A stretch of 64,000 bases of DNA, from assembly GCF_003334785.1 (NCBI RefSeq), contig NZ_QOWV01000008.1; one strand, given 5' to 3'. Each line of letters starts with the position of its first letter. Positions within the stretch are counted from its first letter, which is position 1. Shown piece after piece: positions 26,477 through 41,184 of the stretch. The notes beneath the pieces were generated by a model. The model searched no databases, was not told where the DNA came from, and saw nothing but the letters and a program-made list of their open reading frames with translations. Position numbers and translations under genes: made by a program. Source of the DNA: Escherichia coli (GTDB taxonomy: Bacteria; Pseudomonadota; Gammaproteobacteria; Enterobacterales; Enterobacteriaceae).

Positions 26477-27266
26477 ATTAGAAGAGCCACTTGCCACACT
26501 CTGGCGTGGTAAAGATGCCTTTGCAGAAGTTAAAAAACTGAATGGCGAGGTCTTCCGTGAACTGGAGACGCGTCGCACATTACGCTTTGAACTGGCCGGC
26601 AAAAGTTATTTCCTCAAATGGCACAAAGGGACGACCCTAAAGGAGATTATAAAAAATCTGCTCTCATTGCGGATGCCCGTTTTAGGTGCAGACAGAGAGT
26701 GGCACGCTATTCATCGACTGCATGATGTCGGTGTTGATACGATGCACGGAATAGGATTTGGTGAAAAAGGGTTAAATCCATTAACTCGCACATCATTTAT
26801 TATTACCGAAGATCTCACTCCCACAATTAGCCTTGAAGATTATTGTGCAGATTGGGCGGTCAACCCGCCTGATGTACATATTAAGCGTATGCTGATCGCG
26901 CGTGTGGCAACCATGGTGCGCAAAATGCATGCAGCAGGGATTAATCACCGTGATTGTTATATCTGCCACTTTTTACTCCATTTGCCATTTACTGGCCGGG
27001 AAGATGAATTAAAAATTTCGGTTATCGATCTGCACCGGGCACAGATACGTGCAAAAGTACCACGTCGTTGGCGGGATAAAGATTTGATTGGTTTATATTT
27101 CTCATCAATGAATATTGGTCTGACGCAGAGAGATATCTGGCGATTTATGAAGGTTTATTTTGGGATGCCTTTACGCGATATTTATAGACTTGAGATTGAT
27201 TTACTTAAAAAGGCAAGGATTAAAGCAGGAAAAATAGAAGCAAGAACAATAAGAAAAAACTTGTAA
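26469..27266 (+). CDS. waaP: LPS core heptose(I) kinase
   Basis: 265 aa; kinase-like [13 protein letters not shown]. Confidence 0.9.
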
Positions 27267-27298
27267 ATAGTATTTTATTACAAAAAGGGATTCTAAAA

Positions 27299-28279
27299 TT
27301 GTTGAAATATAGAAACTTCGTTGCTAAGAAGAAAAATTTATACCAAAACGAAGTGTCGTATGTTAAAAATTTACATATTGCACTATGCTTTGACCGTGAA
27401 TTCATAATGCCAGCGGGTGTTGCATTATATTCAATTATATCCAACAATAGACATATTAACCTTCATTTTCACCTTCTTATATCAGGCATAGAAGAAAAGG
27501 AGTGTTCAGCTTTTTACGAACTAGAAGGTCCTAATACATCAATATCTGTATATTATATAACTGATAAATTTGACATTAATCCGGATACATTAGTTCTTGG
27601 TATTCCTTTATCAACATGTTTACGTTTTTTAATCCCAGAAGTTATTGATGATAAAATAAATAAGATACTTTATCTTGACTGTGATGTCATATGTAATGGT
27701 CCTTTAGATGAACTGGTTGATTATAATTTAAATGCTGATATTGCATGTGTAATTCCAGATTCGCCAGAAATGCAAGAACGTGTAAAAAAATTAGACTATG
27801 GCATTGAGTTTATTAATTATTTTAATGCCGGGGTTATGTTTATTAATACCAGCGAATGGAAAAAAAATAATATAACACAAAAAGCGTTAGAAATGATCAA
27901 CAGTGGAAAAGTATATAGGTATGCAGATCAGGATGTGCTCAATATTTTACTTAATGGACGAGTGCATTACCTTGATAAGAAGTACAATAATAAGACAACA
28001 TTGTCAGTACGATGTGATGAAGAACAAAAAAACTTGCCCAACACAATTATAATGCATTATGTTACCCAGAATAAACCATGGTACAAAATATTTAGAGCAC
28101 AAAATTTTGATCATTATTTTTCAAATTCTCCTTGGAAGAACCATAAAAGAAATCTAGCTCCATCATCAAGTGAGATTAGGTTAAAGTCTAAAGTTTTTTG
28201 GCTAGAAGGAAAATATTGTAAAGCCATTTCTTATTATTATAAGTATTTACTTGTTAAATTATTTGGCTTAAAGATTTAG
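27299..28279 (+). CDS. GT8-family (retaining) glycosyltransferase at the waaS position of the core operon
   Basis: 326 aa; LDCDVICNG (DxD) and HYVTQNKPW motifs shared with waaO/waaJ paralogs; symbol left blank because only position, not sequence, suggests waaS. Confidence 0.55.
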   Translation: MLKYRNFVAKKKNLYQNEVSYVKNLHIALCFDREFIMPAGVALYSIISNNRHINLHFHLLISGIEEKECSAFYELEGPNTSISVYYITDKFDINPDTLVLGIPLSTCLRFLIPEVIDDKINKILYLDCDVICNGPLDELVDYNLNADIACVIPDSPEMQERVKKLDYGIEFINYFNAGVMFINTSEWKKNNITQKALEMINSGKVYRYADQDVLNILLNGRVHYLDKKYNNKTTLSVRCDEEQKNLPNTIIMHYVTQNKPWYKIFRAQNFDHYFSNSPWKNHKRNLAPSSSEIRLKSKVFWLEGKYCKAISYYYKYLLVKLFGLKI

Positions 28280-28292
28280 CTGGAATGAAATT

Positions 28293-32358: not shown

Positions 32359-33168
32359 ATGAAGAATATTAGATACATTGACAAAAAAGATGTTGAAAAC
32401 CTGATAGAAAGTAAAACGTCTGATGATGTTATTATTTTTCTTTCCGGCCCCACATCGCAAAAAACACCATTGTCAGTGCTGCAGACAAGGGATGTTATTG
32501 CTGTCAATGGTTCTGCACAATATCTATTAAGTCATAATATTATTCCCTATATTTATGTACTTACCGATGTTCGCTTTTTACATCAACGGCGTGATGATTT
32601 TTATAAATTTAGCCAGAGAAGTCGTTATACCATCGTAAATGTTGACGTTTATGAACATGCTTCTGAAGAAGATAAGCGGTACATCCTTCAAAACTGCCTG
32701 GTACTACGTTCATTTTACCGCAGAGAAAAAGGTGGATTGATCAAGAAGATCAAGTTTAATATTTTGAGCCGAATTCATAAAGAGCTCCTGATCTCTGTAC
32801 CTTTTTCTAAAAAAGGTCGTCTGGTTGGCTTTTGCAAGGATATTAACCTCGGTTATTGTTCATGCCATACCGTTGCTTTTGCTGCAATCCAAATAGCCTA
32901 TTCGCTGAAGTATGCTCGTATTATCTGTTCAGGCCTTGATTTAACGGGTAGCTGTTCGCGTTTCTATGATGAAGATAAGAATCCTATGCCCTCAGAGTTG
33001 ATTCGGGATTTATTCAAAATTTTACCATTTTTCCGTTTTATGCGTGAAAATATAGAAGATATCAATATTTATAATTTATCCGACGATACTGCAATTCAAT
33101 ATGATATTATTCCCTATATGAAAATATCCGAAATTGAAGAGCCGTGTGTTTATGAAAAAATAAGCTAA
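32359..33168 (+). CDS. waaZ: LPS core biosynthesis protein WaaZ
   Basis: 269 aa maximum (in-frame stop at 32305 prevents a longer N-terminus). Confidence 0.75.
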   Translation: MKNIRYIDKKDVENLIESKTSDDVIIFLSGPTSQKTPLSVLQTRDVIAVNGSAQYLLSHNIIPYIYVLTDVRFLHQRRDDFYKFSQRSRYTIVNVDVYEHASEEDKRYILQNCLVLRSFYRREKGGLIKKIKFNILSRIHKELLISVPFSKKGRLVGFCKDINLGYCSCHTVAFAAIQIAYSLKYARIICSGLDLTGSCSRFYDEDKNPMPSELIRDLFKILPFFRFMRENIEDINIYNLSDDTAIQYDIIPYMKISEIEEPCVYEKIS

Positions 33169-33220
33169 TATTTTATATGTGTTTATTACGTGTTATAAAT
33201 TATATTGGAGTTGGCTAATA

Positions 33221-34363
33221 ATGATTAAAAAAATAATATTTACCGTCACACCAATATTTTCTATACCGCCAAAAGGAGCTGCAGCGGTTGAAACATGGAT
33301 TTATCAGGTCGCAAAAAGACTTTCGATTCCAGTAACTATCGCCTGTATTCGAAACGAAGGTTACCCAACCTACACAAAAGTAAATGATCACTGTGATATT
33401 CACTACATTGGTTTTAGTCGAGTCTATAAACGACTTTTCCAAAAGTGGACTCGACTTGATCCTGTGCCATATTCTCAGCGTATTTTAAATACCCAACCTA
33501 AAAACACTGATCCGAAAGACTCTGTTATTGTTATCCACAATAGCATGAAGCTGTATAAACAGATTCGTAGCAGAAGCCCTCACGCGCAGCTAGTTATGCA
33601 TCTTCATAATGCTTTCGAGCCAGGTGAGTTAGACAAAAATGCAAAGATAATTGTTCCTAGCCAGTTTCTTTTCGATTTCTATTCGGAAAAAATGCCTGAT
33701 GCAAATATTGCTATTGTGCCTAATGGTTTTTGTTCTGAATCGTATGAACAAAATAATACTGAAGATTTGAGGCAGAAACTGAACATTGATGCAAATGATA
33801 CCGTGTTATTATTTGCAGGAAGGATATCACCAGATAAAGGTTGCCTGATGCTTATGGAGGCTTTTAATCAGCTGAATAAGATACAAGATAACCTCAAACT
33901 GGTGATTGTCGGAGATCCTTTTGCCAGTAAAAAAGGCGAAAAAGCTGAATATCAGAAAAAAGTTCTGGATGCAGCGAAAGCTATTGGAGCGCAATGCATT
34001 ATGGCGGGTGGACAGCCTCCAGAGCAGATGCATAACTATTACCGTTTAGCAGATTTAGTTGTTGTTCCTTCTCAGGTAGAAGAAGCTTTTTGTATGGTAG
34101 CTGTTGAAGCGATGGCGGCAGGTAAACCAGTGCTTGCCAGTCAAAAAGGTGGAATTAGTGAGTTTGTTCTGGAAGGAATTACAGGCTATCACCTTGCAGA
34201 GCCTATGACATCTGAAAGTATTCTCGCGGATATTAAGCGCGTTTTGGCGGATGCTGACAGAGCTCAAATTGCTAAAAATGCCCGAAATTTTGTTTTCTCA
34301 AAATATAGCTGGGAACATGTTACTCAGCGTTTTGAAGCACAAATACAAGACTGGTTTGGTTAA
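33221..34363 (+). CDS. waaK: LPS outer-core GT4 glycosyltransferase, WaaK-like
   Basis: About 380 aa from MIKKIIFTVTP; E-x7-E motif; an upstream ATG at 33179 is possible. Confidence 0.7.
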   Translation: MIKKIIFTVTPIFSIPPKGAAAVETWIYQVAKRLSIPVTIACIRNEGYPTYTKVNDHCDIHYIGFSRVYKRLFQKWTRLDPVPYSQRILNTQPKNTDPKDSVIVIHNSMKLYKQIRSRSPHAQLVMHLHNAFEPGELDKNAKIIVPSQFLFDFYSEKMPDANIAIVPNGFCSESYEQNNTEDLRQKLNIDANDTVLLFAGRISPDKGCLMLMEAFNQLNKIQDNLKLVIVGDPFASKKGEKAEYQKKVLDAAKAIGAQCIMAGGQPPEQMHNYYRLADLVVVPSQVEEAFCMVAVEAMAAGKPVLASQKGGISEFVLEGITGYHLAEPMTSESILADIKRVLADADRAQIAKNARNFVFSKYSWEHVTQRFEAQIQDWFG

Positions 34364-34382
34364 AAATTATTGGATTTGAAGA

Positions 34383-34418
34383 GCCTGCCTGAACTTAATG
34401 TCAGGCAGGCTTTTTTTT
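34383..34418. terminator. Bidirectional terminator between convergent waaK and waaL
   Basis: 11-bp perfect stem gcctgcctga / tcaggcaggc followed by T8; waaL stop codon lies inside the T tract. Confidence 0.6.
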
Positions 34419-35634
34419 ATTTATTCCGCATTGCTAACAGTAAACCAACAATCAAGCCAATTGGTTTGAGATCAACTTCCTCGAAGTTACCTCGAATAAT
34501 ATAAAAGCTTACAAGCGTTAAAAATAGTAGTAATTGACCATTATAAGGAGTGACGACAACTGTTTTAAACGTTGCATTAGCTGTCTCTTTGATAATAGAG
34601 CCATACAGATAAAGTAAAGCGAGTAGTCCAGCCAAACCCGCTGCAAACCAAATTGACAAAACAACGTTGTGTGGCCCAATGGATTGCCTGAACTTCCATG
34701 ACGGAAAATCTACAACACGCTTATTATATATTGCATGGTAAATATCATCGCCGTAGCCATATCCCTTAAGAGGATTTTCCATAATTAATGTCCACGCCGT
34801 ACCTTGAGTACCATTGGTATAGCGATAAGAACTGTCGGTCTGTTGAAGTTTATAAATAAGCCTGTCTTTACCAGCATGATCACCTTTATAGGTAAATACA
34901 CCCACTGCGGCAACAGAAATAACGATGGAAGTCAGCATCAATAATTTCCACTGACGATTTAAGATTAACCATAGCAGAGTCACTATGAATACTGCCAGCC
35001 ATGCACCACGAGACAGCGTTCCTAATAGCAGAAATAAGAAAACTGCACTAAAAATTACGAATGCTATTTTATAAGAGGTTTTCTTGATAAGCCAAAGGTT
35101 TAATAATGCTGGAAACAGAAACACCATTGAATCGGAAATACTACGGTGTTCATAGGTGGAAAATGGCATTATTCCTTTATTATAATCCTGAATATAAAGA
35201 ATAAGTTCAACAAGACAACGTAAGCCAAGTCCGGTAACTAATGAGTATAGTACAATTTTACCAATGCTTTCATTATCTTCATCTTTTAATAATGCAGGTA
35301 TAAGTAAACTATAGGCCAAAAATCCTTTAAGTACCGTATTACTGAATTCTTTAAAACTGATTTTCAGATCAGGTGATATAAAAGTAGCATATAAAAGAAT
35401 GAGTGATAGTGCCAGGACACTATAAAAAAGATTATTTTTATAGAGTACTTTAAATGTTCCCGGAGCACGAGAAACTTGATAGATTACCGTAATAATCATT
35501 AGTATAGATATGATGTGTTTATAACGGGTTATACCATCAAGGAAAAAGGTTGCAATAAAGAGGAATACCAACGCTTTATTCCAGTACGGTTTCCACTTTT
35601 CTTTATTACGTAGCGCCAGCGAGGCTGTTAACAT
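34417..35634 (-). CDS. waaL: O-antigen ligase
   Basis: 405 aa polytopic membrane protein starting MLTASLALRNKEKWKPYWNKALVF. Confidence 0.85.
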   Translation of the reverse strand: MLTASLALRNKEKWKPYWNKALVFLFIATFFLDGITRYKHIISILMIITVIYQVSRAPGTFKVLYKNNLFYSVLALSLILLYATFISPDLKISFKEFSNTVLKGFLAYSLLIPALLKDEDNESIGKIVLYSLVTGLGLRCLVELILYIQDYNKGIMPFSTYEHRSISDSMVFLFPALLNLWLIKKTSYKIAFVIFSAVFLFLLLGTLSRGAWLAVFIVTLLWLILNRQWKLLMLTSIVISVAAVGVFTYKGDHAGKDRLIYKLQQTDSSYRYTNGTQGTAWTLIMENPLKGYGYGDDIYHAIYNKRVVDFPSWKFRQSIGPHNVVLSIWFAAGLAGLLALLYLYGSIIKETANATFKTVVVTPYNGQLLLFLTLVSFYIIRGNFEEVDLKPIGLIVGLLLAMRNK

Positions 35635-35672
35635 TGCTTCTCCACCATCTTAAATAATATATAACGTATTAA

Positions 35673-36629
35673 TCAGGAATTGATTTTATTAAATACCGTT
35701 TCTGCAGTCAGATGAGCAAGATCTTTATCTGGTGCCCTACAAACCACCTGATTCTTCCCATATCCGCCAATTAATCCCGGATCGGTTGGTCCATAAACCG
35801 TGATATTCGGTCGATCCAGTGCTGCAGTTAAATGACTTAACCCAGTGTCTACCGATACCACGAATTTCGCTCCGGCCAGCACACGGGCAACACCTTCCAG
35901 ACTCATCTTCGGCAATACTTCAACATAAGCAAATCCTTCCGCCAGTCGTTTCGCCCGTTTTTCCTCATGCGGCGCACCCCACGGAAGTTTAATGCGAATC
36001 CCTGAATCTGCCAGTAAACCAATCAATTCTCGCCAGTGTTCTTCCGGCCAGTGTTTATCATCACGGGTCGTCGCATGAAGAAATACGGCATATTCGCCAG
36101 CATCTGTAGGCAGGTTCGTCAGAAAATGCTGTGCGATAGCATAATCGCCCTGGGTTTGCGGTTTGCTATAGCCCAGACTTTTGGCAAAAAGTTCGCGGAT
36201 GCGTTCTACGGCGTGCTGCTGTTTTGCAATATGATGTTTACGATTGTAAAACAGGCTGGCTAAAGGTTCGCGAGCGGTTTGCCAGTCCATTCCATGCTTT
36301 ACGCCATGCGCCAGACGCGTCACCAGCGCCGCGCTTTTTACCAGCCCCTGAGCATCGATAACTGCGTCATAGTTCTCTGCTTGTAGCGCTTCACGAAACG
36401 CTTTGCGTTCAGCTTTTATGGGGGCCGAGAACCAGGCTTTACGCCAGCGACGTATTGCCACAGGAATAACTCGCTCAACGGCGGCGTGCCAGGAAGGAAT
36501 CTGTGCGAACCCTTCTTCCACCACCCAGTCAAACTTAATCCCTGGGATTGCCTGCTGGGCATCAGTGAGTGCGGGCAACGTATGGAGAACATCGCCCATC
36601 GACGATGTTTTAACGATCAAAACCCGCAT
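35673..36629 (-). CDS. waaC: LPS heptosyltransferase I
   Basis: 318 aa MRVLIVKTSSMGDVLHTLPALTDA... Confidence 0.9.
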   Translation of the reverse strand: MRVLIVKTSSMGDVLHTLPALTDAQQAIPGIKFDWVVEEGFAQIPSWHAAVERVIPVAIRRWRKAWFSAPIKAERKAFREALQAENYDAVIDAQGLVKSAALVTRLAHGVKHGMDWQTAREPLASLFYNRKHHIAKQQHAVERIRELFAKSLGYSKPQTQGDYAIAQHFLTNLPTDAGEYAVFLHATTRDDKHWPEEHWRELIGLLADSGIRIKLPWGAPHEEKRAKRLAEGFAYVEVLPKMSLEGVARVLAGAKFVVSVDTGLSHLTAALDRPNITVYGPTDPGLIGGYGKNQVVCRAPDKDLAHLTAETVFNKINS

Positions 36630-37679: not shown

Positions 37680-37687
37680 TCACTTCA

Positions 37688-37806
37688 TCCTTCAAGCTGT
37701 CTCTGCGGCGGCTGCCTGCGTTCACTCCGGTCACTTACTTTTGTAAGCTCCCGGAGATTCACTTAGTTGCTGCCTTGATACCGCTCGAATGATTTTGTGA
37801 ATTTAC
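37688..37806. repeat. ERIC/IRU-like intergenic repeat between hldD and waaF
   Basis: Core GTGAATCTCCGGGAGCTTACAAAAGTAAGTGACCGGAGTGAACG (minus strand, 37719-37762) closely resembles the ERIC central inverted repeat as I recall it. Confidence 0.55.
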
Positions 37807-38739
37807 GTTGATGTCGCGATTCAGCCAGGCCATGTATTCCGTTACGCCTTCGGCAACGGTTTTGAACGGTTTGTCATAACCCGCCGCGCGCAGATTCGTC
37901 AGATCTGCCTGCGTGAATGCCTGATAGCGGCCTTTCAGTTTATCCGGGAACGGAATGTATTCGATCTGGCCTTTCTTGTGATAAGCAAGCGTTGCATCGG
38001 CTACCGCCTGGAAGGATTCCGCACGACCAGTACCGAGGTTGAAGATGCCGGAAACGCCATTTTCCAGGAACCACAGGTTTACATCTGCCACGTCGCCAAC
38101 ATAGACGAAGTCGCGTTTAAAGTTCTCGCTACCTTCGAACAGCTTCGGTGATTCACCGTTATTAAGCTGGGTGTTGAGATGGAAAGCGACGCTCGCCATG
38201 CTGCCTTTATGGCCTTCACGCGGTCCATAAACGTTGAAATAACGGAAGCCAACAATCTGTGAGTTTGCTTCCGGCAGAATTTGACGAACATATTCATCAA
38301 ACAGGAATTTCGAGTAACCGTAGACGTTCAACGGTTTTTCGTACTCGCGGGATTCAATAAAGTCGGAAGTGCGACCGCCGTAAGTGGCTGCGGATGAAGC
38401 GTACAGGAACGGGATTTCACGCTCCAGGCAGTAGTGCAGCAGCTCCTTGGAGTATTGATAGTTGTTATCCATCATATACTTGCCGTCCCACTCGGTGGTG
38501 GAAGAGCACGCGCCTTCGTGGAAAATCGCTTCGACATCGCCGAACTCTTCGCCAGCCATAATCTGGATCAGGAAGTCTTCCTTATCCATATAGTCTGCGA
38601 TATTCAGGTCCACCAGGTTCACAAACTTGGTGCCGTCTTTCAGGTTGTCCACCACCAGAATATCGGTGATGCCTTTGTCATTCAGGGCTTTAACGATGTT
38701 GCTGCCGATAAAGCCCGCGCCGCCGGTAACGATGATCAT
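37759..38739 (-). CDS. hldD: ADP-L-glycero-D-manno-heptose-6-epimerase with variant C-terminus
   Basis: Rossmann GGAGFIGS; ORF is 326 aa and ends ...[23 protein letters not shown] instead of the ...AWLNRDA end I recall. Confidence 0.9.
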
Positions 38740-38952
38740 AACTGTAACCTTCGAATTGTGGAGTCAGAGACAATCTCAGACACGAATACTTCTATCATAT
38801 CACTACACGGCGCTGGCTACAGCCATTCACCGAAAGTGGTATGCCTGAGCGTGATTTATGCTTATTTTTTGACAAGTACAAATGCTTCATCTCGTATCAA
38901 CCTATGGCTTTCGGTAATATGTGCTGAAATTTGCCCAGTCTGGAGAATCGCG

Positions 38953-40149
38953 ATGCGTGGAGATTTTTATCAGCAGTTAGCCAACGATCTGGAAACCGCT
39001 CGTGCGGAAGGATTGTTTAAAGAAGAGCGCATTATCACATCCGCTCAACAAGCGGATATCACTGTGGCGGATGGTAGCCACGTCATTAACTTTTGTGCCA
39101 ATAACTACCTGGGGCTGGCGAACCACCCGGAACTGATTGCGGCAGCAAAAGCGGGAATGGATTCTCATGGTTTCGGCATGGCTTCGGTGCGTTTTATTTG
39201 TGGCACTCAGGACAGCCACAAAGAGCTTGAGCAGAAGCTGGCTGCATTCCTGGGGATGGAAGATGCGATTCTCTACTCTTCCTGCTTTGATGCTAACGGT
39301 GGCCTGTTTGAAACACTGCTGGGTGCGGAAGACGCCATTATCTCCGACGCACTGAACCACGCGTCTATTATTGATGGTGTGCGTCTGTGTAAAGCTAAAC
39401 GCTATCGCTATGCCAACAACGATATGCAGGAGCTTGAAGCTCGTCTGAAAGAAGCGCGTGAAGCCGGTGCGCGTCATGTGCTGATTGCCACCGATGGTGT
39501 GTTCTCGATGGACGGCGTGATTGCCAATCTGAAGGGCGTTTGCAATCTGGCAGATAAATACGATGCCCTGGTGATGGTAGACGACTCCCACGCGGTCGGT
39601 TTTGTCGGTGAAAACGGTCGTGGTTCCCATGAATACTGCGATGTGATGGGCCGGGTCGATATTATCACCGGTACGCTTGGTAAAGCGCTGGGCGGGGCTT
39701 CTGGTGGTTATACCGCGGCGCGCAAAGAAGTGGTTGAGTGGCTACGCCAGCGTTCTCGTCCGTACCTGTTCTCCAACTCGCTGGCACCAGCGATTGTCGC
39801 CGCTTCCATCAAAGTGCTGGAGATGGTTGAAGCGGGCAGCGAGCTACGTGACCGTTTGTGGGCGAACGCGCGTCAGTTCCGTGAGCAAATGTCGGCGGCG
39901 GGCTTTACCCTGGCGGGAGCCGATCACGCCATTATTCCGGTCATGCTTGGCGATGCGGTAGTGGCGCAGAAATTTGCTCGTGAGCTGCAAAAAGAGGGGA
40001 TTTACGTCACCGGTTTCTTCTATCCGGTCGTTCCGAAAGGTCAGGCGCGTATTCGTACCCAGATGTCTGCGGCGCATACCTCTGAGCAAATTACGCGCGC
40101 AGTAGAAGCATTCACGCGTATTGGTAAACAACTGGGCGTTATCGCCTGA
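38953..40149 (+). CDS. kbl: 2-amino-3-ketobutyrate CoA ligase
   Basis: 398 aa from [20 protein letters not shown]; the ORF-track 571-aa version is an upstream read-through. Confidence 0.9.
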
Positions 40150-40158
40150 GGATGTGAA

Positions 40159-41184
40159 ATGAAAGCGTTATCCAAACTGAAAGCGGAAGAAGGCATCTGG
40201 ATGACCGACGTTCCTGAGCCGGAACTGGGTCATAACGATCTGCTGATTAAAATCCGTAAAACAGCCATCTGCGGGACTGACGTTCACATCTATAACTGGG
40301 ATGAGTGGTCGCAAAAAACCATCCCGGTGCCGATGGTCGTGGGCCATGAATATGTCGGTGAAGTGGTAGGTATTGGTCAGGAAGTGAAAGGCTTCAAGAT
40401 TGGCGATCGCGTTTCTGGCGAAGGCCATATCACTTGCGGTCACTGTCGCAACTGTCGTGGCGGTCGTACCCATCTGTGCCGCAACACGATCGGCGTCGGC
40501 GTTAACCGCCCGGGCTGCTTCGCCGAATATCTGGTGATTCCGGCGTTCAACGCCTTCAAAATTCCCGACAATATCTCCGACGATCTGGCTTCCATTTTTG
40601 ATCCCTTCGGTAATGCCGTGCATACCGCGCTGTCGTTCGATCTGGTTGGCGAGGATGTGCTGGTCTCTGGTGCAGGTCCGATAGGTATTATGGCTGCGGC
40701 GGTGGCGAAACACGTTGGTGCACGCAATGTGGTGATCACGGATGTTAATGAATATCGTCTCGAACTGGCGCGCAAAATGGGTATCACCCGTGCGGTCAAC
40801 GTCGCTAAAGAAAACCTTAATGATGTGATGGCAGAACTGGGTATGACCGAAGGCTTTGATGTCGGTCTGGAAATGTCCGGTGCGCCGCCAGCGTTTCGTA
40901 CCATGCTCGACACCATGAACCACGGCGGTCGTATTGCGATGTTGGGTATTCCACCTTCTGACATGTCGATAGACTGGACAAAAGTGATCTTTAAGGGCTT
41001 GTTCATTAAAGGCATTTACGGTCGTGAGATGTTTGAAACCTGGTACAAGATGGCGGCGCTGATTCAGTCTGGCCTCGATCTCTCGCCGATCATTACCCAT
41101 CGTTTCTCTATCGATGATTTCCAGAAGGGCTTTGACGCTATGCGTTCGGGCCAGTCCGGGAAAGTTATTCTGAGCTGGGATTAA
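40159..41184 (+). CDS. tdh: L-threonine 3-dehydrogenase
   Basis: 341 aa zinc-type alcohol dehydrogenase [27 protein letters not shown]. Confidence 0.95.

Follow-up and report, generated by a model that had tools for sequence, protein, structure and literature searches.

The 213-bp spacer that separates the divergent genes hldD and kbl in the stretch of Escherichia coli DNA analyzed here (64 kb; hereinafter the window) is very probably an ancestral, unoccupied divergent promoter region; the K-12 form of the locus, which contains htrL (yibB), would have arisen through insertion of a cassette that most likely spread by homologous recombination, together with waa alleles or near them. Judging from the aligned spacers, K-12 is the derived state, having gained htrL, and the window strain has not lost it. 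The absence of htrL, to which a sequence-only reading of the window had drawn attention, should accordingly not be taken as a loss: on the same alignments the empty spacer is the ancestral, majority form, and it is K-12 that has an insertion. That htrL is variably present was already known, and the window offers a view of an ordinary accessory-gene polymorphism from its empty side; in a pan-genome study of UTI, yibB/htrL is among the differentially present LPS genes, together with waa genes (PMC8303582). In itself, the absence of htrL is of little importance.

In the organization that we propose, the spacer would consist of two back-to-back expression modules, one for hldD (extended –10 element, transcription start, leader hairpin, and Shine-Dalgarno sequence) and one for kbl-tdh (upstream conserved blocks, TAATAT, and Shine-Dalgarno sequence), separated by a short variable center. 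An AT-rich htrL cassette of ~1.22 kb would have been inserted in this center, immediately upstream of the hldD promoter, in what are now 36% of E. coli (including K-12 and all strains with an O157/R3 core) and a few Citrobacter.

The hldD–kbl spacer in the window and in other genomes

In the window, hldD (rfaD; ADP-L-glycero-D-manno-heptose 6-epimerase, 326 aa, identified from its translation and the annotation of strain M217) occupies 37759–38739 on the minus strand, and kbl (glycine C-acetyltransferase, 398 aa, N-terminus MRGDFYQQL) occupies 38953–40149 on the plus strand. The spacer between them (38740–38952), the unoccupied form of the K-12 htrL site, matches exactly the 213 bp between divergent genes given by the sequence-only reading, and the accompanying claim that it has no coding capacity is borne out: we found no htrL remnant and no credible open reading frame, those wholly inside the spacer being 20–31 aa long and located in its variable part, and the others merely overlapping it. 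A tblastn search with K-12 HtrL as query recovered no homologue anywhere in the 64-kb window (best e-value 1.9), a BLASTN comparison of the middle 62 bp of the spacer with the K-12 cassette, run with short words, returned only chance 7-mers, and no Rfam family was detected in the spacer. A match to the Rfam model V_AS5 (e-value 8 × 10–4, far below the gathering threshold) lies on an ERIC repeat at the 3′ end of hldD and was set aside as a repeat-derived chance match. E. coli M217 (NZ_AP019189.1) is 100% identical to the window around the spacer, and its RefSeq annotation has rfaD and kbl as adjacent genes.

In K-12 MG1655, to which the window aligns in reverse orientation (3767504–3832417), htrL/yibB (b3618, 3792826–3793683, 858 bp) lies between kbl (b3617) and rfaD/hldD (b3619), as the sequence-only reading had stated, and hldD and kbl are not directly adjacent there. 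The K-12 spacer measures 1435 bp, a net excess of 1222 bp over the window. The alignment of the window with K-12 is broken only at the spacer, whose outermost 48 bp toward hldD and ~103 bp toward kbl are common to both, the middle amounting to ~63 bp in the window versus 1284 bp in K-12.

A 1211-bp junction probe found the hldD–kbl junction uninterrupted in 3466 of 5426 complete E. coli genomes (64%), which makes htrL dispensable, and split into two places in 1959. The 1284-bp K-12-specific segment is likewise present in exactly 1959 genomes (at ≥99% identity in 1711), always on the chromosome; the empty and cassette-bearing genomes are an exact complement, together accounting for 5425. The spot thus does vary among strains, as had been proposed, and is a clean two-state polymorphism in which the window has the majority state. 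The suggestion that htrL is in fact present and was missed through an assembly or collapse artefact runs against 3466 independently finished genomes with an identical uninterrupted junction, three of which are 100% identical to the window over the 1211 bp of the probe, and against the finding of the cassette nowhere in any of the 501 genomes with the window type of waaL; we regard it as next to inconceivable.

We also surveyed outgroups, taking one genome per species; the window Kbl as query yielded 80 loci, 78 of them with both genes. The spacer is 202–231 bp long and homologous to that of the window in 68 of these 78 Enterobacteriaceae representatives, on which basis the empty site would be ancestral and htrL an insertion. 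For instance, empty spacers measure 213 bp in E. albertii (the exact length also found in E. coli LF82), 202 bp in Salmonella enterica subsp. arizonae and diarizonae, 214–216 bp in Citrobacter, and 208 or 215–217 bp in Enterobacter; those of Klebsiella and its relatives, Kluyvera, Buttiauxella, and Cedecea also fall within 202–231 bp. The window spacer is collinear from end to end with empty spacers in other genera, including its central ~63 bp, which have no BLAST counterpart in K-12 and are homologous to the E. albertii, Citrobacter, and Enterobacter spacers, and which are therefore best read as ancestral sequence, not as a deletion scar. The ordered set of conserved motifs is complete in the window (Shine-Dalgarno sequence, hairpin, TGnTATGAT, CTTCAGCC, CGTGATTTATGC, CATCTCGT, GGTAATATGTGC, and GGAG), with a single substitution in its copy of CTTCAGCC (CTACAGCC).

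Three of the 78 representatives have htrL between hldD and kbl (Escherichia sp. MOD1-EC7003, Citrobacter sp. R56, and C. freundii M-21), three others, all Citrobacter, have a gene for a WaaB-like GT4 glycosyltransferase in the spacer, and four have an ERIC repeat there (a Lelliottia sp., Enterobacteriaceae bacterium RIT714, Klebsiella michiganensis, and K. indica). The ERIC repeats of the Klebsiella and Lelliottia spacers lie elsewhere than the htrL insertion point. The four ERIC-bearing spacers are widened to 340–442 bp, and in K. michiganensis the conserved CATCTCGT block upstream of kbl has given way to the repeat.

The htrL cassette and its insertion point

The K-12 HtrL protein matches the NCBIfam YibB equivalogs (NF008462/TIGR02192), and its relatives, which carry the name 'WlaTC/HtrL family glycosyltransferase', come from Citrobacter, Cedecea, Salmonella, Providencia, Pectobacterium, and Acinetobacter. 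Modeled with AlphaFold from an alignment of 45 sequences, HtrL has a GT-A Rossmann-like fold, whereas its single sequence gave no usable model (pLDDT 34). Three aspartates (D146, D232, and D233) are invariant across the 45 homologues, and D234 is nearly so. A sequence search of the PDB with HtrL gave nothing significant. From the model, we infer that HtrL is a GT-A-fold glycosyltransferase, and the consequence of its absence is likely to be one LPS-related glycosyl transfer fewer.

The K-12 cassette holds htrL as its only gene, together with its own terminator and an AT-rich promoter region; the GC content is 37% in the htrL coding sequence and 19% in the 100 bp upstream of it, versus 49% in the window. 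Shimada 2014 (PMC3946193) lists the K-12 htrL–hldD spacer among the regions to which H-NS and the RpoD holoenzyme bind. We did not find an ops/JUMPstart element (GGCGGTAG) in the K-12 cassette, despite the label 'RfaH-regulated' in the table of one paper.

The point at which the cassette would enter is still discernible in the window as an empty site (38827/38828), directly after a conserved motif, CT(T/A)CAGCCATT (38817–38827). The cassettes of K-12 and of the other htrL-bearing genomes, as well as the Citrobacter gene for the WaaB-like protein, all begin at this motif. The cleanest example is Citrobacter sp. R56, where the htrL cassette, 1226 bp long, is immediately bordered by ...CAGCCATT and TCACCGATAAG: the junction reads ...CAGCCATT, then the insert, then TCACCGATAAGCC, the ancestral sequence picking up exactly past the 1226 bp. 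This junction has no target-site duplication, and the cassette ends have no terminal direct or inverted repeats beyond chance 8-mers. An origin of the cassette as a transposon or integrative element was considered and ruled out on both counts.

In K-12, the ~45 bp beyond the 48 shared on the hldD side (GTCTGTAATCATACCATCACAT...CCCTTCAGCCCTTTAC) correspond to the ancestral hldD promoter region in diverged form. This version of the hldD flank is found in all four htrL-bearing haplotypes, which come from three taxa and have the flank GT(C/G)TGTAATCATACCATCACAT...CCCTTCAGCC in common, and in no empty site. The window is devoid of the cassette-associated GTCTGTAATCATACCATCACAT and instead has ACTTCTATCATATCACTACAC, the form of E. 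coli and E. albertii empty sites. Since the cassette has no transposon-like ends and travels with a diverged hldD flank, it most likely spread by homologous recombination in the conserved hldD and kbl sequences on either side, moving with the waa core-type alleles or close to them; its origin would have been a single or rare illegitimate insertion. The htrL genes of K-12 and Citrobacter sp. R56 are only ~76% identical at the DNA level, and the polymorphism would therefore be either old or repeatedly seeded from diverged donors.

The other gene found at this position encodes a 383-aa WaaB-like GT4 in Citrobacter sp. Cu233, Citrobacter sp. wls619, and C. youngae (loci L010, L011, and L012; e.g., L010 6696–7847), which reaches 381 bits against NF007396, just below the cutoff of 385. 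It is inserted at the motif GGCTTCAGC, the position of htrL in other taxa, which suggests that different LPS genes use a common landing point. In C. freundii M-21, the spacer of 2710 bp also contains ~1.5 kb of apparently non-coding DNA (43% GC) between htrL and kbl (L064 6459–8000); this interior has no open reading frame of at least 80 aa and is possibly a decayed second cargo gene.

Predicted regulatory elements on either side of the site

Motif conservation was assessed in an alignment of 67 distinct species spacer sequences. On the hldD side, all elements being on the minus strand, it brought out an extended –10 element, TGATATGAT (TGnTATGAT; 38794–38802), whose T, G, and TATGAT are invariant in 67 of 67 and which would mark a σ70 promoter of hldD. 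The transcription start, placed by promoter geometry only, would be an invariant A (A33; 38787) located 7 nt downstream of the –10 element. A conserved leader hairpin, GUCUGAGA-UUG-UCUCUGAC (38763–38781), spans +7 to +25 of the predicted hldD mRNA, and a near-invariant Shine-Dalgarno sequence, AAGG (38748–38751), lies 8 nt before the hldD ATG.

The hairpin is predicted in all 67 species (at about +4 to +31; 47 distinct sequences), with a mean z of –2.6 versus +0.76 in a 3′ control segment; that of the window itself is modestly stable (–6.4 kcal/mol, z –1.65). RNAalifold on a plain MAFFT alignment returned no structure, the 3′ arm being out of register, and we used per-sequence folding and covariance-model realignment thereafter. 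After realignment, 86% of cells pair and 7 of 7 pairs have compensatory changes, in 85 cells, these counts being taken from a model-fitted alignment that favors the structure; none of 500 shuffles attained the observed values, and slid controls reached at most 58%. The covariance model, with its 7-bp helix, matches 81 of 81 loci, including every cargo-bearing one, and the insertion therefore leaves the hldD module intact. In the window it matches 38734–38817 on the minus strand with 83.6 bits (e-value 6.7 × 10–12; the window being in the seed, partly by construction), compared with 85.6 bits in K-12. We infer that the module comprises a σ70 extended –10 promoter of hldD and a 5′ leader hairpin, the latter most likely acting as an mRNA-stabilizing element. 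A generic scan of the spacer for σ70 promoters and terminators made only background-level calls, the putative hldD and kbl promoters not being among them. Expression of the hldD-waaFC operon is heat-inducible, and the leader hairpin, covarying across the family, is a candidate for a role in it.

The hairpin, together with the mechanically called reading frames of 20–31 aa, could also be taken to mean that the spacer is not empty and that a small protein or a small RNA stands in place of htrL. We consider this most improbable. The reading frames lie in the variable center or overlap promoter elements and suffer substitutions and indels even among E. coli, and no Rfam family matches; the hairpin, 6 nt after the invariant extended –10/start geometry and 20 nt before the hldD Shine-Dalgarno sequence, is best taken as the leader of the hldD mRNA and, being equally present in htrL-bearing strains, is no substitute for htrL.

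On the kbl side, with all elements on the plus strand, the block CGTGATTTATGCT (38850–38862) is near-invariant across 16 genera and is possibly an operator of the kbl-tdh operon. Further toward the gene are CATCTCGT (38888–38895), nearly invariant in a 16-sequence alignment and corresponding to the –35 region of a putative kbl promoter; GGTAATATGTGC (38913–38924), invariant or near-invariant and containing the predicted –10 element TAATAT (38915–38920); and the Shine-Dalgarno sequence GGAG (38942–38945), conserved across genera. A perfect TTGACA at 38869–38874 is specific to the window allele, other E. coli having TTTTGCAGAAG, and no good –10 element lies 17 bp downstream.

A tract of ~400 bp at ~38836–39250, running from the spacer center through the kbl-proximal spacer into the first ~300 bp of kbl, is 83–90% identical to K-12, ~87% to every other E. 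coli examined, and ~86% to Citrobacter, thus being as far from other E. coli as from Citrobacter. About 479 genomes have it at ≥99% identity. By its divergence, the tract looks imported from an unsampled enterobacterial donor; at least one recombinational replacement would therefore have occurred, and the left end of the tract falls close to the point of htrL insertion. Downstream, tdh (40450–41050) is also mosaic, at 89–90% identity to K-12 and 95% to LF82 and O157.

The tract bears on whether an htrL-bearing ancestor of the window strain secondarily lost the gene, by deletion or by replacement with an empty allele. With 0.4 kb of kbl-proximal DNA apparently imported, such an ancestor may have had the gene until an allelic replacement removed it, the ancestry of an allele not being that of its lineage; moreover, both htrL-bearing and empty sites accompany the K-12-type and R1-type waa clusters, which points to switches in both directions. 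Simple deletion is excluded by a spacer that is of ancestral length, collinear with outgroups across its center, and free of any htrL remnant, and none of the 501 genomes with the window type of waaL has htrL. A lineage in which an empty allele had displaced htrL would look the same as one that never possessed it. On balance we judge secondary loss improbable and retain the ancestral empty spacer as the preferred reading.

Association with LPS core type and comparison with known loci

The proposal that the spot is a variable accessory locus calls for one refinement: it is no independent islet, the htrL state being strongly linked to the neighboring waa core-type polymorphism. We tabulated this with queries joining one type-specific waaL to the cassette, which give counts of records and places, not per-genome lists; the four waaL types do not cross-match, the arithmetic was calibrated by the window query (one cassette place per genome), and the core-type labels reflect waaL similarity plus gene content, not chemistry. 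The cassette accompanies the O157/R3-type waaL in all 1364 genomes that have it, the K-12 type in 451 of 1033 (44%), the LF82/R1 type in 140 of 1834 (7.6%), and the window type, characterized by waaK, in none of 501; the remainder, about 694 genomes, includes about four with htrL. Individual annotated genomes fit these counts: the site is empty in the R1-type LF82 and INSC1002, whereas htrL is present in the R3-type O157 86-24 and STN0717-11 and in K-12. The combined query of K-12 waaL and the htrL cassette had one match on a plasmid record, all others being chromosomal. In the htrL-bearing E. coli O157:H7 86-24, waaH, a glucuronate transferase gene just past tdh, is annotated as frameshifted (L006 17858–18893).

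The window type of waaL is thus present in 501 of 5426 E. coli genomes. In the window, the waa cluster differs from that of K-12 in two blocks (27176–28292 and 33123–35730), with a GT8-family gene at the position of K-12 waaS, and a GlcNAc-transferase gene (waaK-like) and a different waaL at the position of K-12 waaU/waaL; waaB–waaZ is only 87–88% identical to K-12. From the waaK-like gene we take the core to be R2-like, a label that follows the published core types. The window also has an ERIC/IRU repeat of ~124 bp (GTGAATCTCCGGGAGCTTACAAAAGTAAGTGACCGGAGTGAACG...) inserted at the last codon of hldD (37681–37804, minus strand, from the 3′ end of hldD to the start of waaF). It replaces the C-terminal ...NRDA*, making HldD 326 aa long instead of 310, and widens the hldD–waaF gap from 9 to 79 bp. 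Of the 5426 E. coli genomes, 480 have the repeat at this place, and they are roughly those with the window type of waaL.

With its presence in all R3/O157-type and in no waaK-type genomes, htrL is almost a marker of core type, and this offers a lead toward the acceptor of HtrL. A bolder reading, which we put forward as possible but doubtful, is that the few bases following the motif CTTCAGCCATT, just upstream of the hldD promoter, are a recurrent landing point for LPS glycosyltransferases (the GT-A-type HtrL in Escherichia and Citrobacter, the WaaB-like GT4 in other Citrobacter) and an outpost of the waa locus, with presence and absence of htrL forming a long-lived, possibly trans-species polymorphism that selection on the LPS core, e.g., phage or host pressure, would maintain. 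The trans-species element is suggested by the htrL genes of K-12 and Citrobacter sp. R56, which are only ~76% identical in DNA and yet share the same insertion point and flank signature. If this were true, the contrast between 0/501 waaK-type and 1364/1364 R3-type genomes would come from how htrL functions with each core type and would go beyond physical linkage.

Compared with the known K-12 MG1655 locus, the window has the same flanking genes in the same divergent orientation, and the hldD promoter-leader module and the kbl-proximal promoter blocks are also common to both; the difference lies in the spacer, which in K-12 contains the 858-bp htrL, an AT-rich promoter region, and a terminator, and in the window no gene. 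The spacers of E. albertii, Salmonella enterica (arizonae and diarizonae), Citrobacter braakii, and Enterobacter cloacae are gene-free, with the motifs in the same order as in the window, and the kbl-proximal 100 bp of the window have the Salmonella/Citrobacter-like variants GTGATTTATGCT, TCGTATCAAC, and GCTGAAATT, in place of the forms usual in E. coli and E. albertii. Like the genes that distinguish the E. coli waa (rfa) core types (R1, R2, R3, R4, and K-12), which are linked, recombining, low-GC LPS glycosyltransferase genes, htrL varies with the core; unlike them, it lies outside the three waa operons, beyond hldD, and its association with the type of waaL, 3.3 kb away, is strong yet incomplete. 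Finally, the WlaTC/HtrL proteins (Pfam PF09612, HtrL_YibB) are uncharacterized members of variable LPS/LOS gene clusters, e.g., the OCL5 outer-core locus of Acinetobacter baumannii (PMC4172580), a likeness that concerns K-12 htrL and nothing in the window.
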